DNA of 64,000 bases from Candidatus Poribacteria bacterium (GTDB lineage: Bacteria > Poribacteria > WGA-4E > PCPOR2b): assembly GCA_022826645.1 (NCBI GenBank), contig JAJDUM010000055.1, positions 399 to 64,398 of the forward strand. Direction: 5' to 3'. The notes beneath the pieces were generated by a model. The model searched no databases and was not told the origin of the DNA. It was given only the letters and a program-made list of their open reading frames with translations. Position numbers and translations under genes: made by a program. This document shows positions 2,033 through 60,174 of this stretch, one piece after another (the first letter of the stretch is position 1; each line of letters begins with the position of its first letter).

Positions 2033-5000
2033 ATGAACACCGAAGAAATCAGAAAAAAAGAAGAAATCGAATCCGCCCTGGCGGTCCTATCTACCGGCGA
2101 TTTTTCGGAAAACGCAAAGCACCTGTTAGCCATCTTGGGCTACTGTAGCGAGCGGACCGTGGAACTGCCGGGAACGGCACAGGACTTTATTCAGCGATTC
2201 CCTGCTCAGAACCAAAACACCGAAACAGAACAGGAATTCCTCAACAGCGTGGAATCCGTTAAACTGGTGTTTCAAGTGACAAGCGAGGAAATTGCCCCCA
2301 CTAACCAGCCAACACTGTTTGAATCACCTGCCTTTGATGCGGGATATGTCAGAAGTTTTCTGTTCTTTGCAATCGAATTGACCGATAAAGACTACCCACG
2401 CGGCACATACGCACAGTTTACACGGGAGGTCAACAAACGGTTTATGATGCCGATTGTGGTCCTCTTTCGCGTTGGGAACCGTCTGACCATCGGCTTTGTT
2501 GGTCGCCGTCAACACCAGTATGACCCGGACCGCGATGTGCTGGAACAGGTTACGCTGATTAAGGACATCCGTTTGGATGATCCGCACCGGGCGCATATAG
2601 AGGTTCTATATGAACTAGCACTATGGGAGTGCGCGAAGTGGGTGAACGCCAATAACCGATCAGAAAACTTTGATGGTTTACTTGCGGCGTGGCTTACCCG
2701 ATTGGACACCGAAGAACTCAACAAGAAATTCTACCGGGAACTGTTCGCTTGGTTTGAATGGGCGATTGCTGAAGGGACATTCCCCACAGACAAAAATCGC
2801 ACCTTGAAGTCGGAGGAGCATATCATCCGCTTAATCACGCGCCTACTGTTCGTCTGGTTTATCAAAGAGAAGGGACTAATCGCCGATGCACTGTTCAACG
2901 AGGCGCAAATTTCCCCGTTGCTGAAGGACTACGACCACGACACCGGCGATTCCTACTATCGCGCCGTGCTACAGAACCTGTTTTTTGCTACGCTGAACAC
3001 CGAGATAGAGAAGCGTCGGTTTAGTAAAGGCGGAAACACAGGGCATCGCAATTTCTCGCTGTATCGCTACAAGGATCAGATAACCGCCCCCGATACACTG
3101 TTGACGCTATTTGAGAAAACGCCATTTATCAACGGCGGCTTATTCGACTGCCTCGACAGCGAGGCGGCGACACGCGACGGCGGCTACCGGGTTGACTGCT
3201 TCTCCGATGAACACTACAGAAAGTTGAGCCTCCCCAACCGTCTCTTCTTTGATGAACACCGCGGTCTGATTCCCTTGCTGAAAGGCTACAAGTTCACCGT
3301 TGAGGAAAACACACCGATAGAGCAGGAGGTCGCTTTGGATCCGGAGCTGCTCGGCAAGGTGTTTGAAAACCTACTCGCCGCATATAACCCCGAAACCGGC
3401 GCGACGGCCCGGAAACAGACCGGCTCCTACTACACCCCGCGCCCCATTGTGGACTATATGGTGGAGGAGGCGTTAGTGGCAGCCTTAGCAGCGCAAGTAT
3501 CGCCAACGGACGGAGATGTGCAGTTTTGGGGGGAGCGGTTGCGCTACCTGTTCGACTACGCAAAGGCGTTTGACGATGCGAGCGAATGGTTCAATAGCCG
3601 CGAATCGGATGAGGTGGTGCGGGCGATTTCGGAGTTGAAGATACTCGATCCGGCGGTCGGTTCGGGTGCATTTCCGATGGGGGCACTGCACAAACTGACC
3701 CTCGCACTGCGGCGGCTTGACCCCGATAACACCCGATGGGAGCAGCTACAGAAGGAACGCGCCATCGAACGGGCGGCGGCCGCGTTTGATACGAAGGATA
3801 GACAAACCCGCGACGAGGAGCTCACGGAAATTAGCAGAATCTTTGAGAACTATTCGGGGGACTTCGGACGGAAACTGTACCTGATCCAAAACAGCATCTT
3901 CGGCTTGGACATTCAATCCATCGCCTGCCAAATCGCCAAACTCCGCTTCTTTATCTCGCTTGCCATTGAGCAGGAACCGGATAGAGCCGCAGATAACTTT
4001 GGGATTAAGCCGCTGCCGAATCTGGAGACACGGTTTATCGCAGCGAACACGCTCATCGGTCTTGAGGGGGAACGAACCCTGACCAGCCCCAAAGCGAAGG
4101 CGTTAGAGGTGGAATTGGGCGATAACCGCGAGCGGCATTTCCACGCCACAACACGACCACAGAAACTGGCGTGTAAGCGAGCGGACAAAAAATTGCGGCG
4201 AGCCTTAGCGACGGAATTAAAGCATATCGGGATGCCCGCCGATGATGCGAATAAAGTCGCCGCATGGGACCCCTACGATCAGAACGCAAGCGCCGATTGG
4301 TTTGATCCGGAATGGATGTTTGGTATTGCAGACGGGTTTGATGTGGTGATTGGGAACCCGCCGTATGTCCGCCAAGAAAAAATTAAAGAGCTTAAGCCAA
4401 CGCTGAAGGATCAATACGACTGTTACACCGGCACGGCAGATCTCTATGTCTATTTCTATGAGCGCGGTTTTCAGATGCTTCGAGGCGATGGGGTCTTGAC
4501 CTACATCTCCTCAAACAAGTATTTCCGGTCCGCATACGGTAAGAAACTTCGTGATTTTCTCGCCCGTCAGGCTACTCTATCTCAACTCATCGACTTTGGC
4601 GACGCGCCTGTTTTTACGTCCATTGCGTATCCGAGCATTATCACAGCGTCCAAAACCCTCGCTCAAGGGAACCACCTCCGCGCCCTGAATTGGGAGCCGG
4701 GCCCCTCTATTGACGAATTCGGAACAGTTTTTCGGACAAAGGGGTTCACCATGCCGCAAAACGCCTTGACCGTTGACGGATGGCGACTCGCATCTCCCCC
4801 TGTGTTGAACCTGTTGGAAAAACTCCGCAACGCAGGGACGCCGCTAGGGGAGTATGTCAAAGGACAGCTTTATTCCGGGATCAAAACGGGTTTGAACGAG
4901 GCATTTGTCGTAGACAGGGAGACGCGGGATAGACTTATTGCAGAGCACTCATCATCAGAAGTGTTGAAGCCATTTCTACGTGGGCGCGATGTGAAACGGT

Positions 5001-5638
5001 GGCAGGTGAATTTCGCCGAGCAGTACCTCATCAAAATTGAATCGTCGGAAAACCGAACGCACCCATGGTCAGGGCAGCCTGTGACAGAAGCAGAGCAGCT
5101 TTTCGCTGATACTTATCCCGCCATCCACGCACACTTTAAACCCTTTCGAGAGCCTCTGATCAAGCGATTCGATCAGGGAAAATACTTTTGGGAGTTGCGG
5201 TCATGTGCTTATTGGGAGGAGTTTAAGCAACCGAAGATTGTTTACCCTGATATAGCACAAGGAACGGAGTTTTCCTTTGATGATGGCGGTCATTTTTTAG
5301 GTAACACTTCGTATCTCTTACCAACAAAGGAAATATGGCTTCTCGGCTTACTCAACAGCAAAGCCGTTTTCTGGTTTTACACAAAGACAAGCACACAGAT
5401 TCGGGGTGGGTTTGTAAGGTTTATTGCTCAATATGTGTCTCAAATCCCTATTCCCACTATCAAAACAGCGCAGAAAACATCTATCAGTGAAATGGTTAAT
5501 CAAATCCTTGCTGCCAAACGCACCGACCCGGACGCGGATGTATCCAAACTTGAAAATGAGATCGATCAGATAGTATACTTGTTATACGACTTGACGCCTG
5601 AAGAAATTGATATTGTGGAGGAAGCGGAAAGTGTCTGA
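2033..5638 (+). CDS. Type IIG restriction-modification fusion / Eco57I-family (COG1002-like) N6-adenine DNA methyltransferase with TaqI-like C-terminal specificity domain
   Basis: 1201-aa ORF; SAM motif I ILDPAVGSGAFP; catalytic motif IV VIGNPPYV; TRD-type motif GIKTGLNEAFVV. The N-terminal ~450 aa could be the nuclease, but I could not identify a PD-(D/E)xK motif with confidence. Confidence 0.8.
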   Translation: MNTEEIRKKEEIESALAVLSTGDFSENAKHLLAILGYCSERTVELPGTAQDFIQRFPAQNQNTETEQEFLNSVESVKLVFQVTSEEIAPTNQPTLFESPAFDAGYVRSFLFFAIELTDKDYPRGTYAQFTREVNKRFMMPIVVLFRVGNRLTIGFVGRRQHQYDPDRDVLEQVTLIKDIRLDDPHRAHIEVLYELALWECAKWVNANNRSENFDGLLAAWLTRLDTEELNKKFYRELFAWFEWAIAEGTFPTDKNRTLKSEEHIIRLITRLLFVWFIKEKGLIADALFNEAQISPLLKDYDHDTGDSYYRAVLQNLFFATLNTEIEKRRFSKGGNTGHRNFSLYRYKDQITAPDTLLTLFEKTPFINGGLFDCLDSEAATRDGGYRVDCFSDEHYRKLSLPNRLFFDEHRGLIPLLKGYKFTVEENTPIEQEVALDPELLGKVFENLLAAYNPETGATARKQTGSYYTPRPIVDYMVEEALVAALAAQVSPTDGDVQFWGERLRYLFDYAKAFDDASEWFNSRESDEVVRAISELKILDPAVGSGAFPMGALHKLTLALRRLDPDNTRWEQLQKERAIERAAAAFDTKDRQTRDEELTEISRIFENYSGDFGRKLYLIQNSIFGLDIQSIACQIAKLRFFISLAIEQEPDRAADNFGIKPLPNLETRFIAANTLIGLEGERTLTSPKAKALEVELGDNRERHFHATTRPQKLACKRADKKLRRALATELKHIGMPADDANKVAAWDPYDQNASADWFDPEWMFGIADGFDVVIGNPPYVRQEKIKELKPTLKDQYDCYTGTADLYVYFYERGFQMLRGDGVLTYISSNKYFRSAYGKKLRDFLARQATLSQLIDFGDAPVFTSIAYPSIITASKTLAQGNHLRALNWEPGPSIDEFGTVFRTKGFTMPQNALTVDGWRLASPPVLNLLEKLRNAGTPLGEYVKGQLYSGIKTGLNEAFVVDRETRDRLIAEHSSSEVLKPFLRGRDVKRWQVNFAEQYLIKIESSENRTHPWSGQPVTEAEQLFADTYPAIHAHFKPFREPLIKRFDQGKYFWELRSCAYWEEFKQPKIVYPDIAQGTEFSFDDGGHFLGNTSYLLPTKEIWLLGLLNSKAVFWFYTKTSTQIRGGFVRFIAQYVSQIPIPTIKTAQKTSISEMVNQILAAKRTDPDADVSKLENEIDQIVYLLYDLTPEEIDIVEEAESV

Positions 5639-5733
5639 ATCACGATTTTCAGGATAAGAGCGGATGCCTTCAAAAATCCTGAGAATCCTTGAATCCAGTG
5701 AATCCAGATTCTGACGGTAAGGAAACTAGGGAA

Positions 5734-7563
5734 ATGAATAAAGTTTTTATCTCCTATGTTAGTGAAAATATAGAAATAGTCGAGCGACTCTATCAAGCAC
5801 TCAAATCACACGGGATCGAAGTCTGGCGAGACCGGAATGATATTGCTCCCGGACTCCGATGGAAACGCGAAATTCGGCAGGCTATTCAACAAGGAGCTTT
5901 TTTCATTGCGTGTTTCTCAAAAGAATATGACGAGCGTGATAAGACCTACATGAACGAGGAGCTGACAATTGCAATTGAGGAGTTACGTCAGCGGTCTACT
6001 GACCAAGCTTGGTTTATCCCCGTCAAGTTAAACGAATGCGAAATTCCTGATCGAGACATTGGTGGAGGCGAAACCTTACGCGATCTTCAGTATGTTAATC
6101 TCTATGAAGACTGGGAGTCTAACCTCCAAGATATCCTTAAAGTTGTTCAACCTGCATCATCTAAAACTATAAATGCAGTTACTATCGAATGGTCAGACGA
6201 TTTAAGGGCCGTGGCGGAGTTTTTCAAAGGTCTGACCTATCAAAATAGAAGAAATTATGAAAAAGCCATTGGGCGTTATACAGAAGCATTAAGGTTAAAT
6301 CCACAGATGGTTGAGGCCTATATTAATCGTGGTAATGTATACAGCAGTAGAGGTGAACATAATTTTGCTATTGTCGACTATAACAAAGCGATAGCCTTGA
6401 ATTCTGATGATGCCGACACCTATTACAATCGTGGTTTGGCTCATGGGCAAAAAGGTGATTGTGACCGTGCCATTGCAGATTTTAACATGGCGATACAACT
6501 CAAACCGGATTATGTTGATACCTATTACAACCGCGGTCTAGCTTACGGGCATAAGAGCGATTCTGAGGCTGCCATTGCAGACTTTACTAAGGTGATACAG
6601 CTAAAACCAGATCATGCAAGTGCTTATAATGGTCGTGGTGTTTCTTACCAACAAAAAGGCGATTATGACCGTGCCTTCACAGATTTTAACACGGTGATAC
6701 AACTCAAACAAAACGATGCCATAGCTTACAACAATCGGGGTGGTGTTTACATCAAAAGAGGCGACTATGATCGTGCCATTGCAGACTGTACCAAGGCGAT
6801 ACAACTCGAACCGGATTGTGTTGATACCTATTACAACCGCGGTCTAGCTTACGGGCATAAGAGCGATTCTGAGGCTGCCATTGCAGACTTTACCAAGGTG
6901 ATACAGCTAAAACCAGATCATGCAAGTGCCTATAATGGTCGTGGTATTTCTTACCAAAAAAGAGGCGACTATGACCGTGCCATCGCAGACTATACCAAGG
7001 CGATACAACTGAATCCCAATTATACTGAAGCATATTACAAGCGCGGTCGAACTTACTATGCTAAAAGAGATTATGATCGCGCCATCGCAGACTATACTAA
7101 GGCAATACAACTAAGACCGGATGATATCGGCACCTATTACAATCGTGGTCTAGCTTATGGGCAAAAAGACAATTCTGATGCTGCCATTGCAGATTATAGC
7201 AAGGTGATACAACTCAAACCCAATTATGCCGAAGCCTACAATAATCGTGGGGTGACTTATGACGCAACGGGCGATTATAATCGTGCCATTGCAGATTATA
7301 GCAAGGCGATACAACTGAATCCCGATTATGCCGATGCCTATAATAATCGCGGTGCAGCTTATCACGATAAAGGCGAGCATGCATGGGCCATTGAAGATTT
7401 GGATATGGCGATACAACTTCAACCAGACAATGCTGATGCTTATAAAAATCGCGGGATCATGTGGTTACAGCTGGGAGAACAGGAAAAAGCGAAAGCAGAT
7501 CTAACGGCTGCCAGAAACATGGGGGTAAAACTACCGGCAGACCTCGCTGCAATGTTGCGCTGA
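5734..7563 (+). CDS. TIR domain protein fused to a long TPR array
   Basis: N-terminus VFISYVSENIEIVERLYQALKSHGIEVWRDRNDIAPG...FFIACFSKEY...YMNEEL...WFIPVKL is TIR_2-like. It is followed by about a dozen 34-aa TPR units (AYxNRGxxYxxxGDYDRAIADYxKAIQLxP). The ORF track starts at 5689; ATG 5734 fits the TIR N-terminus better. Confidence 0.85.
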   Translation: MNKVFISYVSENIEIVERLYQALKSHGIEVWRDRNDIAPGLRWKREIRQAIQQGAFFIACFSKEYDERDKTYMNEELTIAIEELRQRSTDQAWFIPVKLNECEIPDRDIGGGETLRDLQYVNLYEDWESNLQDILKVVQPASSKTINAVTIEWSDDLRAVAEFFKGLTYQNRRNYEKAIGRYTEALRLNPQMVEAYINRGNVYSSRGEHNFAIVDYNKAIALNSDDADTYYNRGLAHGQKGDCDRAIADFNMAIQLKPDYVDTYYNRGLAYGHKSDSEAAIADFTKVIQLKPDHASAYNGRGVSYQQKGDYDRAFTDFNTVIQLKQNDAIAYNNRGGVYIKRGDYDRAIADCTKAIQLEPDCVDTYYNRGLAYGHKSDSEAAIADFTKVIQLKPDHASAYNGRGISYQKRGDYDRAIADYTKAIQLNPNYTEAYYKRGRTYYAKRDYDRAIADYTKAIQLRPDDIGTYYNRGLAYGQKDNSDAAIADYSKVIQLKPNYAEAYNNRGVTYDATGDYNRAIADYSKAIQLNPDYADAYNNRGAAYHDKGEHAWAIEDLDMAIQLQPDNADAYKNRGIMWLQLGEQEKAKADLTAARNMGVKLPADLAAMLR

Positions 7564-25464: not shown

Positions 25465-25664
25465 TGGATGTCCTCGTTCACCGATGAGTTCGCTGCGATT
25501 CTATCACCAAACGTTTTGGATGTCAAAGAAAACGCCCTTGAAATCAAGCCAGTCAAGGGATGAAGGAGTGGATATTTTGCTTGCAGGTTCAAAGATAGGT
25601 GTGTTACAATTATTTCAATTTTCATGTTTTCGGTAATTTAGGCTTCGTGATTGGAACGGGAACC

Positions 25665-26177
25665 ATGGACGCAAATGTGCTGGTATTAAATGCGAGCTAT
25701 GAAGCGATTAACGTTTGCAACCTGAGGCGTGCAATGAAGATGCTTGTCAAGGGTGTGGCGTGCATGGAGGAAGTTTCTGATCTGGAGATTCGTTCGCCGA
25801 CTGTTTCGATGAAGATACCGTTGGTAATCCGTTTGGTGAACTATGTTCATATCCCTCACTGTGTTGTGAAATTTTCGCGTAAGAATGTTTTGGTCCGCGA
25901 TCAATACACATGTCAATATTGCGATGAACATTTTCCGCCATCAACGCTAACGATTGATCACGTCAAACCTCGTTCGAGAGGAGGTACGACCGTTTGGGAA
26001 AATGTGGCGACAGCGTGTAAAAAGTGTAATGCTGAGAAAGGCGATCGTACCCCTCATGAAGCGCGTATGTTCCCCAAACGTTCCCCCAAAGCTCCCTCAA
26101 TTATCTCGTATCTACACCTGAGCCGCAATGGTCGATCCTATGACGAAGCCTGGAAAAAATACCTTTACATCAACTGA
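25665..26177 (+). CDS. HNH endonuclease (COG1403-like)
   Basis: MDANVLVLNASYEAINVCNLRRAMKMLVKG...; CQYCDEHF...LTIDHVKPRSRGGTTVWENVATACKKCNAEK. Confidence 0.8.
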   Translation: MDANVLVLNASYEAINVCNLRRAMKMLVKGVACMEEVSDLEIRSPTVSMKIPLVIRLVNYVHIPHCVVKFSRKNVLVRDQYTCQYCDEHFPPSTLTIDHVKPRSRGGTTVWENVATACKKCNAEKGDRTPHEARMFPKRSPKAPSIISYLHLSRNGRSYDEAWKKYLYIN

Positions 26178-29603: not shown

Positions 29604-30254
29604 GTGCACCAATATATTGAAGTTGAAGAAAATACAACGGAAGAGGCCTTGGAAGCTGCGCTTAAGGAACTTGGCGTTAGTCGTGAGCAGGTGAGTGTGA
29701 GGGTTTTACATGAACCTACGAAGGGTATCCTTGGCTTGGGGGCAAAACTCGCTAAGATCCGCGTGACCCTAAAGGAGGATATTTCTTCGACGCCAGAGGC
29801 GATACTTCATGAAATTCTGAGTCATATGGGGCTCGAGGCGGAGATTGAATCTCAAATTATCAATGGAAGTGTACATCTCACGGTGAGCACTGATAATCCC
29901 GGCATACTAATCGGTAAACACGGGCAGACACTAAACGCTGTCGAATATTTGTTGAATTGTATATTAAATAGGTCTTCACTCGTAAAGAAGAAGGTCTTCG
30001 TTGATGCGGAAGGATACCGTGAACGCCGTGAGCAGACGCTGGTAGATCTGGCTCATCGTGCTGCCGCCAAGGTCAAACAGACCCATCAAGAAATCGTTTT
30101 AGAGCCGATGCCTCCTCGTGACCGCCGAATTATTCACGTTACCTTACAATCGGATGAGGATATTCGCACGCATAGCCGAGGTGAGGGAATGATGCGGCGC
30201 GTTGCTGTCACCATGCGCGAAGGATATGAGCCAAACGCAAAGCAGTATGATTGA
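29604..30254 (+). CDS. khpB: Jag/KhpB RNA-binding protein (Jag_N, KH and R3H domains)
   Basis: GTG start; GILIGKHGQTLNAVEYLL (KH); PMPPRDRRIIHVTL (R3H). Confidence 0.85.
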   Translation: MHQYIEVEENTTEEALEAALKELGVSREQVSVRVLHEPTKGILGLGAKLAKIRVTLKEDISSTPEAILHEILSHMGLEAEIESQIINGSVHLTVSTDNPGILIGKHGQTLNAVEYLLNCILNRSSLVKKKVFVDAEGYRERREQTLVDLAHRAAAKVKQTHQEIVLEPMPPRDRRIIHVTLQSDEDIRTHSRGEGMMRRVAVTMREGYEPNAKQYD

Positions 30255-31632
30255 ATGGGATACGATCGCAGCCATTGCGACACCGCGGGGCGAGGGTGGT
30301 GTTGGTATTGTCCGAGTGAGCGGTAGTCTTGCTATTCCCATTGCCTGCCAGATTTTTCGTTCGTCTCGCCACATTTCCGCGGCTGAGTTGCCGAGCCACA
30401 CGCTGAATTACGGGCATGTTATCCGGTCATCGTCAGGCGAGGTTATCGATGAAGTAATGCTCGGTATCATGCGGGCTCCAAAATCGTATACAGCCGAGGA
30501 TGTGGTTGAGTTTAACTGCCACGGCGGTATTGTCCCTCTCAGAGGTGTGCTTGAACTAACGCTAAAAGCCGGAGCACGTCTTGCGGCACCGGGGGAATTT
30601 ACCAAACGCGCTTTTCTCAATGGTCGGCTAGACCTAGCGCAGGCAGAAGCGGTCGTAGATTTAATTCGTTCAAAGACTGACCTCTCCCGTCAAATTGCGA
30701 TAGACCAACTGTCCGGCAGGTTGTCCCAAACGATTAACGCACTCAACGATCGGCTTGCAAATTTGCTTGCGGAAGTCGAAGCCTCTATCGATTTTCCCGA
30801 AGAAGAACTCGATTTCATGGATTTAAGGGCTATGAGGCAGACCGCCCAAGACATCCTTGATGATTTGGATCGGCTGATTGCGAGCGCATCGGACGGCAAA
30901 CTCCTGCGAGAGGGGGTTAACATCGCAATTCTCGGACGACCAAACGTTGGGAAATCGAGCTTGCTGAACACTTTGTTGCAGGAAGACCGAGCGATAGTTA
31001 CGGAAATACCGGGGACGACACGGGATACAATTGAAGCGCCATTGAACCTCGGTGGGATTCCGCTCCAGCTGATAGATACCGCCGGGATACATCAGACAAC
31101 GGATATTGTTGAACAGCAAGGCGTCGAACGAAGTAAAGCCTATCTTGACAGTGCTGACCTGCTCCTAATAATGTTCGATTCATCTCGGTCCTTAACTGAC
31201 GAGGATCGAGAACTACTCCACGCGGCGAAGATTCGTAAATCCGTCCTAATTCTAAACAAAATCGACCTACCTATCGTTACAACTGTTGCAGACTTACACA
31301 TTGATGCGCCTCAGAAACCTGTGGTTCAGATTTCTCTCCTCGATGGCAGAGGGATCGAAGAGTTGAAATCCGCAGTTCACCAAGAACTCCTTGAGGGTGA
31401 CGTGATATGGGGCGATTCTCCAATTGTAACAAATGTGCGTCATCACGATGCGCTGTGTCGCGGAAGGCTCGCGCTTGGGCATGCGATAGAGAGTTTCACC
31501 CAACAGATGCCTCCAGACCTGGTGGCGGTTGACCTCCACATCAGTTTAGATTGCCTCGGTGAAATTGTTGGGAAAACAACGACAGAAGATATCTTGGGTA
31601 GAATTTTTTCTCAATTCTGTGTTGGGAAGTGA
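30226..31632 (+). CDS. mnmE: tRNA modification GTPase MnmE
   Basis: DTIAAIATPRGEGGVGIVRVSG; GRPNVGKSSLLN; DTAGI; C-terminal FCVGK motif. Confidence 0.9.
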   Translation: MSQTQSSMIEWDTIAAIATPRGEGGVGIVRVSGSLAIPIACQIFRSSRHISAAELPSHTLNYGHVIRSSSGEVIDEVMLGIMRAPKSYTAEDVVEFNCHGGIVPLRGVLELTLKAGARLAAPGEFTKRAFLNGRLDLAQAEAVVDLIRSKTDLSRQIAIDQLSGRLSQTINALNDRLANLLAEVEASIDFPEEELDFMDLRAMRQTAQDILDDLDRLIASASDGKLLREGVNIAILGRPNVGKSSLLNTLLQEDRAIVTEIPGTTRDTIEAPLNLGGIPLQLIDTAGIHQTTDIVEQQGVERSKAYLDSADLLLIMFDSSRSLTDEDRELLHAAKIRKSVLILNKIDLPIVTTVADLHIDAPQKPVVQISLLDGRGIEELKSAVHQELLEGDVIWGDSPIVTNVRHHDALCRGRLALGHAIESFTQQMPPDLVAVDLHISLDCLGEIVGKTTTEDILGRIFSQFCVGK

Positions 31633-31734: not shown

Positions 31735-31974
31735 GTGAAGGAGGGATGTAAGATGTTAACACAGCAACAGCAGTGGTGTCCTCAATGCAAACGCTACGTT
31801 GAGACGGAACAGCAGCAGAATAAATTGGGTAGGCGCGGCAATCTGATAAAGCTTACCACAACCTGCCAGAAGTGTCGGACAACATTGGGTAGCAAAACAG
31901 TTAGTGCCGCAACTCTTGAGCAGATGCAAACGGAATCTACTGCTGACCAGTCGACTTCTGGAGACAACCAATAA
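31735..31974 (+). CDS. Small zinc-ribbon protein (hypothetical)
   Basis: Two CxxC pairs (CPQC ... CQKC); no family recognised. Confidence 0.4.
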   Translation: MKEGCKMLTQQQQWCPQCKRYVETEQQQNKLGRRGNLIKLTTTCQKCRTTLGSKTVSAATLEQMQTESTADQSTSGDNQ

Positions 31975-32083
31975 CTAATTTGCAATACAAACTACACTTT
32001 TTTTAGATCTATCCGTTTAAGATATTGATGGACTTTTTTGGAATCTTTAATTTCTATCCCTAAATTCGTTACAAAGGAGAAAA

Positions 32084-32983
32084 ATGATGTTACGTTTTGT
32101 TTGGAAACAAAACCAGCTTATTGTACTTGCTGCGCTGCTGTTGGTCGTTGCTGCAAGTCCGATAGTGCTGGCAGAGGAGAAGATTCAGTGGGCAGGGACA
32201 ATCGAGGAAGGGTTGGCAGAAGCGAAAAAAACAGACAAGCCAATCATGATGGATTTCTACACCGATTGGTGAGGTTGGTGTAAACGGCTGGATGCCGAAA
32301 CGTTTACGGATCCCCAAGTTGTTGAGCTATCGAAAGACTTTGTCAACCTCAAGGTCAATCCTGAAGATACGGACTACCCTGAAAATGAGGAAGCTCGAGT
32401 CAAATATGGTATCAATGGGTACCCGGTAGTTGCATTTCTCACTTCCGAGGGGGATTTGATCCGTCTCAACCACGGATATAGCCCGCCCGACGAGTTTTTT
32501 GGAGTGATGGAAGGTATCTTCAAAGAGGAAGAAGCATTTAAGGAACTGAAAGTAGCGGTTCAGAAGAACCCAGATGATTCGAAGGCTAATGCTGGACTTG
32601 CACTGATTTACATCAAGCGCGGTAAATTTGAGCAGGGGAAGCCCCTATTTGATAAAGCGGTAAAACAGGATCCAAACAATGAAACGGGTCTTTTACCGGA
32701 GTTGTATGTGAATGTTGCGCTCCATTATGGAAATAACGCTGCCGGCGACAATGCGAATGACAATTTCCAGACAGCGGAAGAGCTATTCCAAAAGGTCATT
32801 GATACCTATCCGGACAGCAAGTTCTATGAAGACGCTCAATATTACTTAGGGATTACCTACGCAATTCAGCAGAAGTCTGAACTGGCAATTGCAACGCTTG
32901 AGAAATTACGTGACGCTAAAGATGAGGAGATCCGTCAGCAGACGACACTACTTCTTGAGCGTCTCAAAATGTCGACGAAATAG
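32084..32983 (+). CDS. Secreted thioredoxin-fold (Thioredoxin_7/DUF255-like) plus TPR protein with in-frame TGA at 32270-32272: candidate selenoprotein (U-G-W-C redox motif)
   Basis: ORFs 32084-32272 and 32456-32983 share one frame with no other stop between them. Translation reads ...KPIMMDFYTDW-TGA-GWCKRLDAETF..., so the TGA replaces the first Cys of WCGWC. A hairpin follows the TGA. Confidence 0.65.
32280..32307 (+). promoter_or_regulatory. Candidate bacterial SECIS hairpin
   Basis: GUAAACGGC-UGGAU-GCC(gaaa)CGUUUAC starts 8 nt after the UGA; the apical loop contains GG. Confidence 0.45.
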
Positions 32984-33013
32984 TCCCTTACCAACTTGAA
33001 CGTATCCACGAAG

Positions 33014-33055
33014 AAAGCCCATGTCCGATGAAAATTGGTGTGGGCTTTTTCATTT
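33014..33055 (+). terminator. Rho-independent terminator candidate
   Basis: AAAGCCCA ... TGGGCTTTTTCATTTTT about 30 nt after the 32983 stop; 8-bp stem with a rather long loop and a T-rich tail. Confidence 0.45.
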
Positions 33056-33156
33056 TTGGTGGGCTGGAATTCTCATATTTTAATGCGCTGACTGTGCTAC
33101 CTCATCCCTAAACTGGGGACGCATGATTATCCCACAGGAGATGGTACAATCACCGC

Positions 33157-44465: not shown

Positions 44466-46694
44466 ATGAGGTTTAATTTGTATCAATCCTCTGAAATCAG
44501 AAGATATCTGTGTGTTTTGAGTTTTATATTCATATTTCCAATCTGTGTAGGTGCTGCCTCCGAACCAATGGAGTACCGAGCCGAGGCATATCGAACTTTC
44601 CAAAGCATTGAAATTGACGGGGATTTCAGTGAAGCAGACTGGCAACATGCCAAACCCATAAACCAGTTTGTCCAAACTGAGCCCGACGAAGGGGTACCAG
44701 TAACCGAATCTACTGAAGTCCGCATCCTTTACGACGAGAAAAACGTCTACTTCGGTTTTACCTGTTCAAGTTCACGTCGTGATCACATTGTCGCCAACGA
44801 AATGCGTCGAGACGCAGAGGGTTTGCGCGAGAACGATAATGTGTTCATCCTGTTGGATACCTACAACGATAAACGTAATGGAGTTTTCTTCCGCATCAAT
44901 CCATTGGGTGCGATGCAGGATATTGCGTTGACGAACAGCGGAGATACCCGAAATACGAGTTGGGATGCTGTATGGGACTGCCGCTCCAAGATTCACGATA
45001 CCCATTGGACTACAGAGATTGCTATCCCTTTCAGTCAACTCCGTTTCAAGAGAACCGATTCGATGGTTTGGGGCGTCAATTTCGGACGAACCCTCCGACG
45101 AAAAAATGAGGAAGCAACGTGGTTCCCCGTATCCAGACAGTATGGCAGTCTGTCGAAATATCGAACTGCTAATCTTGGCAGCCTCGTTGGTTTAGCGGGC
45201 ATCACTCCGTCAAGGCGTCTTGAATTTCTGCCTTATGTTTTACCGGGGATGAGTCGAATTGAAGAAGATGCGAGCACCGATGGGGTATTCGACGCTGGCT
45301 TGGATGTCAAGTACGGTCTAACGTCGAACCTCACCGCAGATCTGACGCTTAATACCGACTTTGCCCAAGTTGAAGCGGATCAAGAACAGGTCAACTTGTC
45401 GCGCTTTAGCTTATACTTTCCGGAGAAGCGTCCCTTCTTCTTGGAAGGGGCGGGAATGTTTGATTTTGGTATTCCCAGTCCGACTTTCTTTGCTCCTCCT
45501 CCGTTGATTCTGTTTTATAGTCGTCGCATCGGTCTTGAAGAAGGCTACGCCATCCCGATCATTGGTGGGGGTAAGATTACTGGGAAAGTGGGACCTTACG
45601 GGGTTGGTCTGTTGAATGTGGCGACAGATGAATTTCACACCGATCCAGCGGATACGGATGAAGATGATATGGTCGATCTGTCGAGGACAAACTACTCCGT
45701 GCTGCGTGTCAGGCGGGATCTCTTTAGTGGCTCCAGCATTGGAGCGATTGCGATTAATAAACAGGATACGGATACCTATAATCGCGCGGGTGGCTTGGAT
45801 TTCGCGTATCGTCCAAACGACAGCATTGATGTGCGTGGACTTTGGGCGCAGACTTATGAAAAAGATGTCTCTGACGAAAACGATGCGATGTACTTTGGCG
45901 GTACTTGGCGCAACAGCTTACTGCGATTCAACGGCGCATATACCTTCATTGGAGAGGATTTCAACCCCGAAGTTGGATTCGTCCGCCGTCAGGGTAGTAG
46001 ACGACTTCGTGGGCAGATACGTTTCACCCCGTGGCCCAGAAAATTCGGTGTTCGGCGCATCTTCATGGGACCGGACGTTGACTATATTCTCAACCAAGAT
46101 GATGAGTTGGAAACGCGAGAATTTTCACTCACCAATTGGATTCAACTTGAACAGGGGAATTGGATCAATCTTGAAATCCGGCGAACCTCTGAATTCCTCG
46201 ACGAGGACTTTGAAATCCGTGACGACGTTATCATACCGGTCGGCGATTATGATTTGACCTCCATCAGAACTATGATTGATATGGATGAGGGACGAAAAAT
46301 TTCGGGCGGATTCGGGGCAAATTACGGCACCTTCTTCAAGGGAACGAGGCGCGGTTTTGATGTCCGAGCGAACTTCAAACCGAGCGGACGCCTCGCTTTT
46401 GAAACACGATACCAATTTAACCGGGTGAATCTACCGAACGAAACCCCGTTCAATGTGAATGTTTTCGGGAGTCGCATTGTCTATTCTTTTGCTACAACGC
46501 TCTATGCGAAGTTGTTTGCGCAATGGAACAGCGACGATGAGGTGATCTCCACCAACTTTCTGCTCAACTACATCTACCGTCCCGGCAGCGATTTCTACCT
46601 CGTTTTCAACCAGGTCTATGATAGTGATGGTACAAACACAGCGCTTGAGGAATCGACGGTTGTAGCAAAGATGACTTATTGGTGGAACCCGTAA
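44466..46694 (+). CDS. CBM9-like / DUF5916 domain outer-membrane-type protein (paralog 1)
   Basis: Signal peptide; IEIDGDFSEADWQHA...TEVRILYDEKNVYFGFTC (CBM9-like); TDFAQVEADQEQVNLSRFSLYFPEKRPFFLEGAG (DUF5916 core); C-terminus ...MTYWWNP. Confidence 0.8.
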   Translation: MRFNLYQSSEIRRYLCVLSFIFIFPICVGAASEPMEYRAEAYRTFQSIEIDGDFSEADWQHAKPINQFVQTEPDEGVPVTESTEVRILYDEKNVYFGFTCSSSRRDHIVANEMRRDAEGLRENDNVFILLDTYNDKRNGVFFRINPLGAMQDIALTNSGDTRNTSWDAVWDCRSKIHDTHWTTEIAIPFSQLRFKRTDSMVWGVNFGRTLRRKNEEATWFPVSRQYGSLSKYRTANLGSLVGLAGITPSRRLEFLPYVLPGMSRIEEDASTDGVFDAGLDVKYGLTSNLTADLTLNTDFAQVEADQEQVNLSRFSLYFPEKRPFFLEGAGMFDFGIPSPTFFAPPPLILFYSRRIGLEEGYAIPIIGGGKITGKVGPYGVGLLNVATDEFHTDPADTDEDDMVDLSRTNYSVLRVRRDLFSGSSIGAIAINKQDTDTYNRAGGLDFAYRPNDSIDVRGLWAQTYEKDVSDENDAMYFGGTWRNSLLRFNGAYTFIGEDFNPEVGFVRRQGSRRLRGQIRFTPWPRKFGVRRIFMGPDVDYILNQDDELETREFSLTNWIQLEQGNWINLEIRRTSEFLDEDFEIRDDVIIPVGDYDLTSIRTMIDMDEGRKISGGFGANYGTFFKGTRRGFDVRANFKPSGRLAFETRYQFNRVNLPNETPFNVNVFGSRIVYSFATTLYAKLFAQWNSDDEVISTNFLLNYIYRPGSDFYLVFNQVYDSDGTNTALEESTVVAKMTYWWNP

Positions 46695-51426: not shown

Positions 51427-52362
51427 ATGAGTCAAGAGACTGTTTGGTTACTTTCAGAAGAGGGCATCTTAGACTTCAACGGCGAGCCGATTAACGATGT
51501 TCCATTTCAGCCTGCATCGGTCATTGCAGGGGATGCGGGGCACGATCGGTTATCCGTGATTGTCAACAACCAGGACGTGTGGACGTATGCTTCGGGGCTG
51601 TGGGATCAGCAGATATTAGCGGATGTCACGCTGAACTGCATTTGCTGGACACCCGATAATCGGCTACTCGTGGGCACAGAATGTGCTCGGCTCGCGTGGG
51701 TCGCCGATGGTGAACTGGATTTTATCGACAGTTTTGACGCAGTGCCAGGACGCAAACTTTGGAAGACACCGTGGGGAGGTCCCCCGGATGTGCGCTCTTT
51801 GGCGGTCTCCGCGGATGGAACCATCTACGCAAACATCCATGTCGGTTGGATTGTTCGCTCTTGCGATGGTGGGGAAACGTGGGAAAACCTTCAGGAAGGA
51901 TTGGAGATGGACGTGCATCAGGTCTCCACTCACCCGTCCGATCCAGCGATCGTCTTTGCCGCGACCGCAAGGGGATTCTATCTGAGTCGAGATTATGGCG
52001 ATACGTTTATGCACCAGCGAAATGGCATGCCTTACTACTATCAACGAGCGTGTACCTGCTTTCCTGAGAGTGACGTCTACTTAGTTTCTACATCGCGGGG
52101 TCCCCACAGCAGGGTAGATGCCCAACTCTATAGAAGCGAGGACGCGGGTGAAAATTGGGCGTTGGTCAATGGCCTGCCGAAACAGATCGGTGAGAATATT
52201 GACACCTTTCAGATTATTACGGTTGACGGAGCGAAGGCGTTAGTTGTCGTGGACGACACCACCCTATACCAAACAGATGATTTAGGGCTAAACTGGCAGA
52301 AGGTCGCCGATTATCCGAGGTTGTTTGGCGGACTTGTGGTACAAATGCCGCAAGCAGCGTAA
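51427..52362 (+). CDS. BNR/Asp-box repeat beta-propeller protein (no signal peptide seen)
   Basis: Asp-box motifs SCDGGETW, SRDYGDTF, SEDAGENW, TDDLGLNW. Confidence 0.7.
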   Translation: MSQETVWLLSEEGILDFNGEPINDVPFQPASVIAGDAGHDRLSVIVNNQDVWTYASGLWDQQILADVTLNCICWTPDNRLLVGTECARLAWVADGELDFIDSFDAVPGRKLWKTPWGGPPDVRSLAVSADGTIYANIHVGWIVRSCDGGETWENLQEGLEMDVHQVSTHPSDPAIVFAATARGFYLSRDYGDTFMHQRNGMPYYYQRACTCFPESDVYLVSTSRGPHSRVDAQLYRSEDAGENWALVNGLPKQIGENIDTFQIITVDGAKALVVVDDTTLYQTDDLGLNWQKVADYPRLFGGLVVQMPQAA

Positions 52363-54732: not shown

Positions 54733-55308
54733 ATGAACACAGACAAAGAAAATATATCCAAAGGTATCGCCGCTTTGGAATCGGGTCCGCCGCTTCCGGT
54801 CTCAGTTGATGGCAATGACTTCACGCCGAGATATTTGAACCCAGAGGAGATACGTCTATTCCGGTCGCCGATGGGTGCTCCCCGTTTGGAGATTCTGGAG
54901 GAGGTCTGCTACACTCGTGTGACAGTGCGCCGAATCCTTCCGTTGAGTGATCCAAATCGCTACATCTCACTTGGAGTTGGGGAGGAGATGGAAATCGGTA
55001 TCATTGAGGACCCAGCGCGACTCGACTCCGAAAGCCTCAAAATCCTTCGTGAGGAGCTCGATAAACGGTATTTTACGCCCATCATTCAGAAAGTTATCCG
55101 CGTCAAGGAGCGGTTTGGTATCCATGACTGGGAGGTCGAAACGTCGCGTGGTCGGATAACTTTCTCTGTGCAGGGGCTTCATCAGAACGTCAGACAGTTT
55201 CCACCTGCCCGGCTGCTCGTGACAGACGTGCGTGGGAATCGGTACGATATTCCCGACTATCACAGGCTCGATTTGCACAGCTTTAATCAGATTCAGCGGC
55301 ATCTGTAG
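54733..55308 (+). CDS. DUF1854 domain protein
   Basis: Starts 2 nt after the ABC stop. RILPLSDPNRYISL...EIGIIEDPARLDSESLKILREELDKRYFTPIIQKVIRV...WEVETSRGRITF...LLVTDVRGNRYDIPDYHRLD matches my recollection of the DUF1854 pattern. Confidence 0.65.
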   Translation: MNTDKENISKGIAALESGPPLPVSVDGNDFTPRYLNPEEIRLFRSPMGAPRLEILEEVCYTRVTVRRILPLSDPNRYISLGVGEEMEIGIIEDPARLDSESLKILREELDKRYFTPIIQKVIRVKERFGIHDWEVETSRGRITFSVQGLHQNVRQFPPARLLVTDVRGNRYDIPDYHRLDLHSFNQIQRHL

Positions 55309-57680: not shown

Positions 57681-57852
57681 CATGAAGCTTGATATTTGGT
57701 AGATTCTCACGCTCAAACCAGCTACCCTCCTTTCCAACCCGCAAATTCCTGACACCTCCCCAGCGTGTTTTCGTGGTTGACAATTTATGTTGGCATAAAT
57801 TATGCTTGCATTAAAAGATGTATTTGTACTCTTGACATTTTCGAGGGATACC

Positions 57853-60174
57853 ATGAAGCGCTTGGTTTTATCGTTTGCAATCTTTTTTCTTATTCTGTTA
57901 TGCGTAAATAGTTACGCGGAGTTCCCTCACCAATTTCTGTTAGGGCACACTGGACGTGTGCTCGCAGTTGGGTATAGCCTTGATGGGAAGTGGCTTGCTT
58001 CTGGTGGCGCGAATGAAATTCGCATCTGGGAGGCCAATGTCAATGAACCTATGTACACCCTGACGGGACATAGGGGAAAAGTTGAAGATCTTGCGTTCCG
58101 CCCTAATGGTGACCTCGTATCTGCCTCTATTGATGGAACGATTAGATTGTGGGAGGTTCGGACACAGCGGGAAATTCGTGCGTTTGAAGGACATCTTGGA
58201 CAGGTCACATCTGTAGATTTTAATTCCAACGGAAACCGCATCATTTCCGGATCAAGGGATCGAACGCTCAAGCTGTGGGAAGCAAATACCGGTAAGCTTC
58301 TGGCGACGCTTGAAGGGCATACAGACGTTGTTTGGTCTGTTGCATTCAGTCCTGATGGCAGTATGATCGCCTCCGGATCCGAGGATGGCACGGTGCGTGT
58401 CTGGAATGCATCGGATGGTTCACCGCTCCACGAATTGATTGGGCATGCGCAAGGGGTTCTTTCTGTGGCATTCCATCCCGATGGCAACCTCATCGCGTCA
58501 GGCGGTAGAGATGGAACCGTCCAACTCTGGGACCTCAATTCGGCGGAGCCCGAAGGCACTATCGGGGAGACGGAACCGTTTGCAACCTATGACCGGCAAG
58601 TGATGTCAGTTAGTTTTAATCCAAATGGGCGCCTCCTCGCTGTTGGACTACTTAATTCGCTGGTTGATAACACTCTTAAACTGTGGGATGTCTTGACCCG
58701 CTCAGAACTCCAGTCTTTCGATACACAGCTCATACACGATCTATCGTTCAGTCCAACGCGTCCCCAACTCGCAGTCGCGGGGGCAGCCGAAGGAACAATC
58801 ACTATTTGGAGTTCAAGTCATGTAAGACCGGCGCTCCTTGCGCCGCAAGCTGGCGAGTCTGTCAGACCCTCGCAGATCAACTTAAAGTGGGAAACCGTTG
58901 AGAATGCAGTCTATTATGATATCGAAATTTCAAGCACTTCAAACTTTATCGCAGAGAACACACAGTTAATAACTGTTACTGCGGATGAGCTATCCTTTGA
59001 GCCTGAGAACAATATCTCCCATTATTGGTGGCGTGTTCGTGCTGGCAGCTTCGATGGAGTCAGTAACTGGTCGGCGGTCCGGGATTTTCGAGCCCTGGGG
59101 TGCGTGGTCAGGATAGCATCGTCCGTTCGACGGATCAATTTAGGAGAGGAATTTGCCATAGATATTTTCGTTGATTCTGTTATTGACTTGCAAGGATTTA
59201 GCTTCGATTTGCGGTGGACTAATCCTGACGTGCTTACATTTGTAACTGTCACCAGGTTCCGAGATATCTTTGGCGAATCTGGGCTTGGACACCAGCCGAC
59301 GTCGCCGCCCGACCAAATAAATGGGATATACAAGAACATCAGCGCCGCTAAGACCGGGACTAGCGGAATAACTGGTAGTGGTATCGTGTTAGGTGCCTCA
59401 TTTCGGGCAAAAGCTGCTGGAATGAGCACAATTCAGTTGCAGAATCTTATTCTTGTTAATTCAAATCAAGAACAGATCGACTGTGAAATCCACGAGTTGA
59501 AAGTGCTGGTCGAAGAACTTGGCCGACCTTGGGATGTCAACGTTGATGGGATTGTGAATATTTTCGATCTTAGTACTGTTGTGCGATACTTAGGGCAGCC
59601 AGTTCCGACAGATTTGGATGTCTATCCGGATGTCAACGGTGACGGTGTTGTTGATTTTAATGACACCGTGCTGGTGGGTGCACATTTTGGAGAATCTTAT
59701 CAGGTTGATGAAGCCCCTGCTGCACCGCAAGCCGCTGTTGAATCTCTGCACTTAATCTCACCAACCTTGCGCAAGCAGCTTGAATCGATTTACCACGAAC
59801 TCCTGTTGTTACCTGAAAATTCCCCAGAGCTTATTCGTACCAGACAGGTTTTACAACAGCTCCTCTTTTCATCAATTCCGACATATAATCAGCTGCTTCA
59901 AAACTATCCTAACCCGTTCAACCCGGAGACGTGGATCCCCTTCCACCTTGCTTCAGCCGGTCAGGTTAGTATCGAAATTTATGATGCTACTGGGATGCTT
60001 ATCCGTCAGATTGACTTGGGATACCTGATACCCGGTCGCTATCTGAATCGGACAAACGCAGCGTACTGGGATGGGAAGAATCTATATGGCGAGCCTGTCG
60101 CCAGCGGCATATATTTCTACACGCTCTCCACTCCCTCCTTCCGTGCAACCCGGAAAATGATTATCAGCAAATAG
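57853..60174 (+). CDS. Secreted WD40-repeat protein with FN3-like, cohesin-like and dockerin-like modules and a FlgD-Ig/T9SS-type C-terminal domain
   Basis: Signal peptide MKRLVLSFAIFFLILLCVNSYA; about 7 WD40 units (GHxxxVxSVAFSPDG...LWD); cohesin-like FAIDIFVDSVIDLQGFSFDLRW; dockerin repeats DVNVDGIVNIFDL and DVNGDGVVDFNDT; C-terminus NYPNPFNPETWIPF... Confidence 0.8.
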   Translation: MKRLVLSFAIFFLILLCVNSYAEFPHQFLLGHTGRVLAVGYSLDGKWLASGGANEIRIWEANVNEPMYTLTGHRGKVEDLAFRPNGDLVSASIDGTIRLWEVRTQREIRAFEGHLGQVTSVDFNSNGNRIISGSRDRTLKLWEANTGKLLATLEGHTDVVWSVAFSPDGSMIASGSEDGTVRVWNASDGSPLHELIGHAQGVLSVAFHPDGNLIASGGRDGTVQLWDLNSAEPEGTIGETEPFATYDRQVMSVSFNPNGRLLAVGLLNSLVDNTLKLWDVLTRSELQSFDTQLIHDLSFSPTRPQLAVAGAAEGTITIWSSSHVRPALLAPQAGESVRPSQINLKWETVENAVYYDIEISSTSNFIAENTQLITVTADELSFEPENNISHYWWRVRAGSFDGVSNWSAVRDFRALGCVVRIASSVRRINLGEEFAIDIFVDSVIDLQGFSFDLRWTNPDVLTFVTVTRFRDIFGESGLGHQPTSPPDQINGIYKNISAAKTGTSGITGSGIVLGASFRAKAAGMSTIQLQNLILVNSNQEQIDCEIHELKVLVEELGRPWDVNVDGIVNIFDLSTVVRYLGQPVPTDLDVYPDVNGDGVVDFNDTVLVGAHFGESYQVDEAPAAPQAAVESLHLISPTLRKQLESIYHELLLLPENSPELIRTRQVLQQLLFSSIPTYNQLLQNYPNPFNPETWIPFHLASAGQVSIEIYDATGMLIRQIDLGYLIPGRYLNRTNAAYWDGKNLYGEPVASGIYFYTLSTPSFRATRKMIISK

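Follow-up and report, generated by a model that had tools for sequence, protein, structure and literature searches.

Does a UGA codon within an otherwise open reading frame end the protein, or is it read as an amino acid? This question is raised by a locus on the forward strand of a 64,000-nucleotide stretch of DNA from Candidatus Poribacteria (contig JAJDUM010000055.1; the whole stretch is called the window here). At positions 32084-32983, a single frame of 299 codons is interrupted just once, by the TGA at 32270-32272. Our work supports the idea that this region is very likely one gene, and that it encodes an exported selenoprotein of 299 residues. From the comparison of related sequences, we are highly confident that the UGA is recoded through a selenocysteine insertion sequence (SECIS) element that directly follows it, and the residue inserted at position 63 is very probably selenocysteine (Sec).

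The initial annotation of the window had pointed out that two open reading frames (ORFs) listed for this locus, 32084-32272 and 32456-32983, share one frame, that no further stop occurs between 32273 and 32455, and that the TGA stands at the first cysteine of a WCGWC thioredoxin motif. Translation of the region bears out each of these statements: the first ORF of 62 amino acids is closed by the TGA, the frame is then open until the true stop codon, the TAG at 32981-32983, and the second ORF merely starts at the first TTG in the frame of the first. Over the TGA, the translation reads ...KPIMMDFYTDW-TGA-GWCKRLDAETFTDPQVV..., as had been stated. A Shine-Dalgarno-like AAGGAG can be read at 32074-32079, 4 nt before the ATG at 32084 and 7 nt before another ATG at 32087. 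The first in-frame start past the TGA, the TTG at 32456, follows after 61 codons, and no site comparable to this AAGGAG precedes it. The UGA codon, predicted to specify Sec63, occupies the nucleophilic position of a U-G-W-C motif, in which the TGT at 32279-32281 encodes the putative resolving residue, Cys66, and this cysteine is invariant in the protein alignment. The same joined frame is found in 75 Poribacteria genomes; together with the codon alignment described below, this argues for a complete coding sequence of 299 codons plus TAG, i. e. for one gene rather than two ORFs.

A single sequence alone is unable to decide between a selenoprotein gene and a pseudogene. One scan of a collection with one genome per species retrieved 78 related loci, 75 of them from Candidatus Poribacteria genomes, and the proteins of these 75 are 31 to 97% identical to the window product (97% for the ortholog on OZ244825.1). 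The codon for the first Cys is TGA in all 76 Poribacteria sequences, that is, in the 75 genomes and the window, and the three loci from other bacteria (Aminicenantes, Burkholderiales and Enterobacteriaceae) have TGT or TGC in this column. Moreover, distant database homologs that have the same architecture of a thioredoxin domain and tetratricopeptide repeats (TPR), P0062, P0064 and P0065, read DWCGWCKRLD. The in-frame UGA aligns with the redox-active first Cys of the WCGWC/WCxxC motif of the homologs. The alignment of the joined product with its homologs, which the initial annotation had proposed as a check, has thus come out in favour of a recoded codon: Cys occupies the column outside the Poribacteria, and TGA occupies it in all 75 Poribacteria species. 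The 76 coding sequences from Poribacteria were aligned by codons, and the normalised synonymous entropy was determined for each conserved column. The choice of synonymous codons is free at conserved amino acids on both sides of the TGA, with entropies of typically 0.6-1.0. For the 61 codons that separate the TGA from the next start, the protein is likewise conserved and the synonymous sites are variable. Conserved amino acids combined with free synonymous variation on both sides of the TGA mean that the whole frame is translated, and the alignment indicates that purifying selection acts on the protein spanning the TGA. Frameshifts or further stops are found in none of the Poribacteria loci except one short locus.

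This short locus (L075, on PYJE01000050.1 from AGPOR5) is the only one in Poribacteria in which the frame closes 68 codons past the TGA, and its match covers only residues 34-113; it may reflect an assembly problem or a genuinely decayed copy.

The RNA element that would recode the UGA is a hairpin, GUAAACGGCUGGAUGCCGAAACGUUUAC, which is present at 32280-32307. Its core at 32285-32297 is a SECIS candidate of 13 nt with a CGGC stem, a UGGAU apical loop and a GCCG stem, and it corresponds to the codons of Arg68-Leu69-Asp70-Ala71 and the one base that follows them. It is here that the synonymous variation stops: Arg68 is CGG and Leu69 is CTG in 76 of 76 sequences (normalised synonymous entropy 0 for both), Asp70 is GAT in 75 of 76 (0.10) and Ala71 is GCC in 75 of 76 (0.05). 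In contrast, another conserved Arg column is made up of 19 CGC, 14 CGT, 2 CGA and 40 CGG codons. From the codon usage of the window itself, the joint chance that R-L-D-A is spelled CGG CTG GAT GCC is 0.006. An entropy of 0-0.10 in the core as compared to about 0.6-1.0 elsewhere points to selection on an RNA element beyond the coding constraint. In an alignment of 68 sequences, the four pairs of the core are formed in 99.3% of cells; the lone GCC-to-GCT exception keeps a G-U pair, and the lone GAT-to-GAC exception is in the loop. Since the SECIS would lie inside the coding sequence of the active-site helix, the R-L-D-A peptide motif and its exact codons are jointly fixed.

The criteria for bacterial SECIS (bSECIS) elements given in a 2026 review (PMC13188914) are an upper stem of 4-16 bp with an apical loop of 3-9 nt, a G within the first two positions of this loop that is usually followed by G or U, a distance of 16-37 nt from the UGA to the loop, and a minimum free energy (MFE) of -7.5 kcal/mol or lower. 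Applied by hand, all four describe the hairpin of the window: the loop UGGAU has 5 nt with G at position 2 and then another G, the stem has 4 bp, the spacing is 16 nt, since the core begins 12 nt past the UGA and the apical loop therefore starts 16 nt past it, and the segment 32270-32312 folds at -10.0 kcal/mol. The initial annotation had argued that the placement of the hairpin suits a bacterial SECIS, and with respect to these four criteria (PMC13188914) this holds. The hairpin of 32280-32307 that it had described is indeed present. However, only the 13-nt core is conserved: the lower stem GUAAA/UUUAC (in the window GUAAAC/GUUUAC, 32280-32285 with 32302-32307) is paired in 89.9% of cells, and it is rivalled by another helix that was proposed by RNAalifold. 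In this extended SECIS region (32269-32307), G-UGA-G (32269-32273) may pair with UUUAC (32303-32307). All five pairs of this helix are pairable in 67-68 of the 68 sequences, and a change of the Phe codon from TTT to TTC in 20 of the 68 turns a G.U of this helix into G-C; the same change breaks the GUAAA/UUUAC stem in 19 sequences. The G-UGA-G/UUUAC helix is a putative one, in which double changes that compensate for each other were absent. A search of the window for further copies of the core with at most two mismatches gave three weak matches, a number within chance.

Several observations weigh against the interpretation as a selenoprotein gene. The presence of selenium in the protein is deduced from the comparison of sequences, and we infer both the redox partner and clients of the protein and the direction in which electrons flow. 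The hairpin has no compensatory covariation in the 68-sequence alignment, where the counts equal those of shuffled controls. This is because the stem does not vary, so that the structural evidence lies in the invariance of synonymous sites rather than in covariation. The stability of the single sequence is unremarkable, with z-scores of -0.5 to -2.0 against dinucleotide shuffles in four sub-windows, and the MFE structures of the four disagree on the lower stem. A stem of 4 bp and a spacing of 16 nt are the smallest values that the bSECIS model allows. As R-L-D is also conserved in some Cys homologs, a part of the nucleotide conservation is due to protein constraint. No Rfam SECIS or other credible family was detected, neither in the window at gathering thresholds nor in 32200-32400 at E-values up to 10. 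The bacterial SECIS models of Rfam are specific to a few gene families, and this negative result therefore says little. Finally, selA, selB and selD were not found in the window (Pfam, 40 ORFs), and ARAGORN detected no tRNA, hence no tRNA-Sec, in the 64-kb window or in 60 related loci. The window comprises 64 kb of a genome of about 6 Mb, so that the missing sel genes are uninformative.

The initial annotation had itself offered an alternative: the TGA may be a true stop, and the locus a pseudogene that arose by a recent TGY-to-TGA nonsense mutation. It is true that automated annotation treats the TGA as a stop and that public records call only the C-terminal piece, e. g. P0017, and yet a TGA that is shared by 75 species-level lineages with an intact frame rejects this explanation. 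The TGA is kept in 76 of 76 sequences down to 31% identity, the region from the TGA to the next start keeps its amino acids while the synonymous sites vary, and the frame is intact save for the short locus L075. In addition, a systematic error over most of the 75 assemblies is implausible, given the different sequencing platforms and assemblers. A recent mutation of this kind is excluded by these data, and we regard a pseudogene as extremely improbable. The conserved stop might alternatively separate two products, a secreted peptide of 62 residues and a separately initiated TPR protein, with the hairpin as a signal for translational coupling or attenuation. This would agree with the gene models of some species, in which starts are placed soon after the TGA (the 'MCKRLD...' models P0007 and P0009), and with the site of the hairpin, where ribosome pausing is possible. 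However, the two-product explanation is very unlikely: the stop would divide the thioredoxin fold after strand beta-1 and before the active-site helix, so that neither piece could fold, the first start of the window after the TGA comes only after 61 codons and has no ribosome-binding site, yet these codons are conserved, and the stop always replaces exactly the catalytic Cys.

Two further explanations accept that the codon is read and differ in the residue. If TGA were reassigned throughout the genome (genetic codes 4 or 25), it would encode Trp or Gly, and several database models do translate it as W (P0001-P0005, P0138 and P0210). But all of these models are located on short contigs that the gene caller translated with code 4, a thioredoxin motif with Trp in the nucleophilic position would be inactive, and TGA ends 20 of the 44 long stop-to-stop ORFs of the window, including conserved genes at their normal C-termini. 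One of these is mnmE (30202-31632), which ends with ...FCVGK followed by TGA, and FCVGK is presumably the canonical C-terminus of MnmE. TGA is an ordinary stop elsewhere in the window, and it is only the TGA of the selenoprotein gene that is read through; the probability of a genome-wide reassignment is vanishingly small. In the other explanation, the UGA is recoded via the same SECIS and SelB, but a tRNA-Cys-like SelC* (tRNA-ReC) inserts Cys, at least in part. Such tRNAs exist, and the present data do not tell which aminoacyl-tRNA is delivered by SelB. The explanation is nevertheless quite unlikely: SelA and SelD, which are needed only for making Sec, have been reported in three tabulated Poribacteria genomes (PMC5649159), and a 2026 survey of hydrogenases names tRNA-ReC, among UXXU-type genomes, only in Armatimonadota, Desulfobacterota and JAPLJL01 and not in Poribacteria. 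Moreover, a UGA with a SECIS that is maintained throughout a phylum just for the insertion of Cys would have no obvious advantage over a TGY codon.

Recoding of the UGA as Sec is also in agreement with the machinery reported for the phylum. According to Table S4 of Slaby et al. 2017 (PMC5649159), the COG counts for SelA, SelB and SelD are 2, 1 and 1 in WGA-3G, again 2, 1 and 1 in Poribacteria bin70, and 4, 1 and 2 in Poribacteria bin44. The locus from Ca. Poribacteria WGA-3G in our set (L049) carries the TGA form. Sec-type group 4 hydrogenases are reported from Poribacteria metagenome-assembled genomes in the 2026 hydrogenase survey. Within the window, a mechanical screen listed 35 other candidates for TGA read-through; the one that was inspected (187-795) was rejected, as no conserved motif could be recognised across its TGA.

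The joined product of 299 amino acids, with Cys substituted for the stop in the profile scans, consists of three parts. (i) Residues 1-30 (32084-32173; MMLRFVWKQNQ-LIVLAALLLVVAA-SPIVLA followed by EE) form a predicted Sec-type signal peptide, where Sec denotes the secretion pathway: the N-terminus has the three-part form of such peptides, with an A-x-A-like site after the hydrophobic segment, and a signal-peptide-like N-terminus with a 12-residue window of mean hydropathy above 2.0 precedes the thioredoxin core in 73 of the 76 orthologs. (ii) Residues 36-120 (32189-32443) are a Thioredoxin_7/DsbD-gamma-like domain of the thioredoxin fold, which is recognised by Thioredoxin_7 (PF13899; 59.8 bits with a cutoff of 27, E 2.9e-16), Thioredox_DsbH/DUF255 (PF03190; 52.7 bits, E 6.4e-14) and Thioredoxin_2 (PF13098; 48 bits with a cutoff of 27). 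The sequence profiles of the PDB agree with this, with 2kuc at 9.8e-33 and DsbD-gamma at about 1e-22, as does the NCBIfam model of the DsbD C-terminus. (iii) The C-terminal part, residues ~149-299 (32528-32980), is a TPR or helical-repeat domain: TPR_19, TPR_1 and TPR_2 score above their cutoffs, and the TPR families cover residues 149-279. An AlphaFold model was made of the ortholog P0001, which is 79% identical to the window product and has W at the Sec site. In this model (predicted local distance difference test, pLDDT, 93.9; predicted template modelling score, pTM, 0.82), the thioredoxin fold comprises residues ~34-130 and is joined by a long helix (134-160) to helical repeats that extend to the C-terminus; the helices of residues 134-297 have a pLDDT of about 97. 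The N-terminal helix (residues 3-22) is of low confidence and detached from the fold. The initial annotation had predicted a UxxC protein with a signal peptide, a thioredoxin fold and a C-terminal TPR domain, and Pfam, the hydropathy of the 73 orthologs and the model all speak for this. The product would be a DsbD-gamma-like U-x-x-C oxidoreductase fused to a TPR domain that is exported and cleaved.

It is tempting to speculate how such a protein would be made and would act. By the established bacterial mechanism, the UGA at 32270-32272 would not be read as a stop in translation: with the ribosome at the UGA, SelB-GTP-Sec-tRNA(Sec) would bind to the CGGC-UGGAU-GCCG hairpin, and Sec63 would be inserted. 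After cleavage of the signal peptide, the protein may act in the periplasm as a thiol-disulfide oxidoreductase, as judged from DsbD-gamma, DsbH and thioredoxins. With U63-G-W-C66 as the redox centre, disulfides of client proteins, or other oxidised forms of sulfur on them, would be attacked by the selenolate, and Cys66 would resolve the resulting selenenylsulfide. The oxidised U-C centre might then be reduced again by a membrane electron carrier of the DsbD/CcdA type that is not encoded nearby, and the TPR domain might select or hold clients or partners, by analogy with CnoX.

The UGA with its hairpin is not restricted to Poribacteria. A metagenome scan with the pattern TGG-TGH-N6-TGY-N3-CGGCTGGAYGCC yielded at least 120 contigs (loci L079-L198). 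As this pattern required the hairpin, it says nothing on the frequency of other SECIS forms. Among the matches listed, after the removal of non-coding chance matches, TGA precedes the exact core CGGCTGGAYGCC in at least 76 thioredoxin-like ORFs, on contigs with a GC content of 0.33-0.73 (median 0.45), and a Cys codon precedes it in at least 20, on contigs with a GC content of 0.50-0.68 (median 0.61). The closing G after GCC is present in 70 of these 76 TGA ORFs as compared to 6 of the 20 ORFs with a Cys codon. The TGA forms originate from marine, soil, sediment and lake metagenomes. About seven contigs among the matches listed have the synteny of the Poribacteria locus; other subgroups among them are marine, lipoprotein-like forms of about 350 residues with a helical or TPR tail and short soil forms. 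Most database entries of the marine subgroup are truncations of 267 residues that begin after the TGA, and some of the truncated clusters, either unnamed or named 'tetratricopeptide repeat protein', comprise over 300 sequences (P0121, P0126 and others). The three marine Cys-type relatives that were inspected (P0122, P0124 and P0133) read C-x-x-C-K-K-L-D-E or C-x-x-C-K-M-M-D-E, and the marine Sec-type proteins P0138 and P0210 read U-x-x-C-[KD]-R-L-D-A; whether a SECIS is present seems to be mirrored in the peptide motif that follows the active site. As judged from these sequences, the UGA and the hairpin encoded by R-L-D-A are a module of multiple lineages that marks a broad and largely unannotated set of predicted DsbD-gamma-like selenoproteins.

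An idea that goes further is that the SECIS core CGGCUGGAUGCCG, which doubles as the codons for R-L-D-A, is a pre-adapted or transferable 'Sec module' and, jointly with this, that the Poribacteria protein is a seleno-chaperedoxin. We consider this combined proposal doubtful, although it would have consequences. Where the module is present, one TGY-to-TGA change would suffice for a selenoprotein, and this would explain why the same hairpin follows the UGA in DsbD-gamma-like thioredoxin genes of many unrelated lineages, on contigs with GC contents of 33-73%. The Poribacteria would then have a periplasmic CnoX-like holdase and reductase, in which Sec resists over-oxidation in an aerobic symbiont.

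The gene is almost certainly a genuine selenoprotein gene that is mis-annotated in public records. Both NCBI and JGI call only the TPR tail; at NCBI, P0017 is named 'tetratricopeptide repeat protein'. The apparently full-length proteins closest to the window product, P0001-P0005, have W at the Sec site, because the gene caller used genetic code 4 on short contigs, and W at this site is also seen in P0049, P0138 and P0210. The other close database matches are mostly truncated C-terminal pieces. With the gene split or truncated in the records, the annotation of the 75 Poribacteria genomes is left without a conserved enzyme that is probably a periplasmic redox enzyme. If the gene is what we propose, the use of selenium would be fixed in an entire candidate phylum of sponge symbionts, and an exported thioredoxin-TPR architecture would be added to the selenoproteome. 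Metagenomes can be searched for this class easily and with high specificity by means of the invariant hairpin, which many marine and soil relatives have in common. The hairpin also provides a clean natural example of mutual constraint between an RNA signal and a peptide motif. The understanding of the mechanism of selenocysteine insertion is not changed by these data.

The selenoprotein gene comes after yidC, jag/khpB, mnmE and a small zinc-ribbon ORF. mnmE is located upstream in 68 related loci, and the downstream genes vary. The small ORF (31735-31974, forward strand) between mnmE and the selenoprotein gene encodes 79 residues, among them two CxxC pairs of the zinc-ribbon-like type (CPQCKRY...CQKCRTT); Pfam gives no match for it, and it is kept at this position in 51 related Poribacteria loci. 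The listed TTG start of mnmE (30202-31632, forward strand) overlaps the end of jag/khpB (29604-30254, forward strand) by 53 nt, and the true start of mnmE is probably further downstream. The yidC-jag-mnmE cluster suggests that the window is near the rnpA-yidC region, and this region is often found in the vicinity of the chromosomal origin. Directly after the TAG of the selenoprotein gene, a long G+C-rich hairpin followed by UUUUUCAUUUUU (33010-33057, forward strand) is a probable intrinsic terminator: its folding energy is -22.3 kcal/mol (z = -4.19), a value that none of 200 shuffles reached. A simple scan for consensus terminators called nothing at 33010-33057, and it was direct folding that found the hairpin and the U-run.

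Other parts of the window contain further groups of genes. At 2033-7563 (forward), an Eco57I-type fused restriction-modification methylase (1201 amino acids) precedes a protein of 624 amino acids with a TIR domain and about 11 TPR repeats; this arrangement looks like a defence-type neighbourhood, and an ORF for an HNH endonuclease is present at 25599-26177. The segment 44466-57680 (forward) carries five ORFs of about 740-770 residues on the same strand (starts at 44466, 46705, 49110, 52421 and 55383). Two of the five were scanned, and both match DUF5916. The run, which is interrupted by a BNR/sortilin-like ORF (51427-52362) and a DUF1854 ORF (54733-55308), looks like a tandem array of paralogs. 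Finally, the ORF at 57802-60174 (forward) encodes a WD40 beta-propeller protein of 790 residues with many matches to WD40 families of the eukaryotic type; eukaryote-like repeat proteins such as WD40 proteins have often been noted in sponge symbionts.

How does the predicted selenoprotein relate to known systems? Thioredoxin-fold UxxC proteins are the commonest kind of bacterial selenoprotein, and the class that comes closest here includes cd02953, which we take to be the DsbD-gamma model. A 'thiol:disulfide interchange protein' family of selenoproteins (UxxC, PF13098) has been listed since 2004-2006 with members in Geobacter and Syntrophus (Kryukov & Gladyshev 2004; Zhang & Gladyshev 2006), and 'Trx-like 2, cd02953' was represented by 22 Sec and 2,098 Cys sequences in the survey of the Global Ocean Sampling (GOS) data (Zhang & Gladyshev 2008). 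Like the window product, these proteins have a DsbD-gamma-type domain with Sec first in UxxC and a match to PF13098, and their SECIS is located in the coding sequence directly after the UGA. Unlike it, they are catalogued without a TPR fusion and without a member from Poribacteria, and the best Pfam model of the window product is PF13899 rather than PF13098. The reference protein of Geobacter metallireducens, WP_011366075.1, is absent from the 125 database matches of the window product. From the motif and the match to PF13098, the window protein probably belongs to this class. Other Thioredoxin_7 and DsbD-like domains that are able to carry Sec are known in the Trx7/PDZ (NF041199) and TsoB (NF045694) families; in contrast to the window protein, the Trx7/PDZ family has Sec in the second position (CxxU) and a PDZ partner domain instead of TPR. 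The scores for the curated NCBIfam selenoprotein families were all below the cutoffs: 83.1 vs 805 bits for TsoB, 27.2 vs 300 bits for trx7_PDZ_seleno (NF041199) and 24.4 vs 275 bits for VPGUxxT (NF041383). A thioredoxin-TPR selenoprotein is in neither the 2022 nor the 2026 selenoprotein catalogue, and full-text searches of the literature returned no description of the window protein, or of the selenoproteome of Poribacteria beyond the hydrogenase report.

With respect to the fold, Foldseek searches with the P0001 model identified DsbD-gamma as the closest solved structure (1vrs, 2fwg and 1uc7; target-normalised TM-score 0.72-0.80, root mean square deviation about 2.5 A), and the thioredoxin domain also matches DsbH (2ju5). 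Both are periplasmic proteins whose CxxC-type redox centre coincides in position with the U-x-x-C of the window protein. They differ in using Cys rather than Sec, and DsbD-gamma is tethered to a membrane electron-transfer domain whereas the window protein would be free-standing with a TPR domain. No gene for DsbD, DsbD-beta or CcdA was found among the window ORFs scanned, and the 3-kb flanks of the related loci were compared only for the neighbours present in the window. Over the whole length, the best Foldseek matches are E. coli CnoX/YbbN (3qou) and its Salmonella homolog (3qdn), with a probability of 1.0 (E 6.7e-07 for 3qou), and CnoX likewise has an N-terminal thioredoxin fold followed by a TPR domain. 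However, the TM-score is 0.28-0.30, the identity is 14-15% (14% for 3qou), and the orientation of the domains differs. Moreover, CnoX is a cytoplasmic protein with a classical thioredoxin domain and without Sec, whereas the window protein has a predicted signal peptide, and the Pfam and NCBIfam scans of the window product detected no YbbN-type family. CnoX/YbbN is an architectural analogue and not a member of the same family; the likeness suggests, by analogy, that the selenoprotein may hold its client and protect the thiols of the latter. As DsbD-gamma-like UxxC selenoproteins were already catalogued in 2004-2008, the gene of the window is not a new kind of selenoprotein gene; what sets it apart is the fusion to the TPR domain, and that the gene is fixed throughout the phylum.

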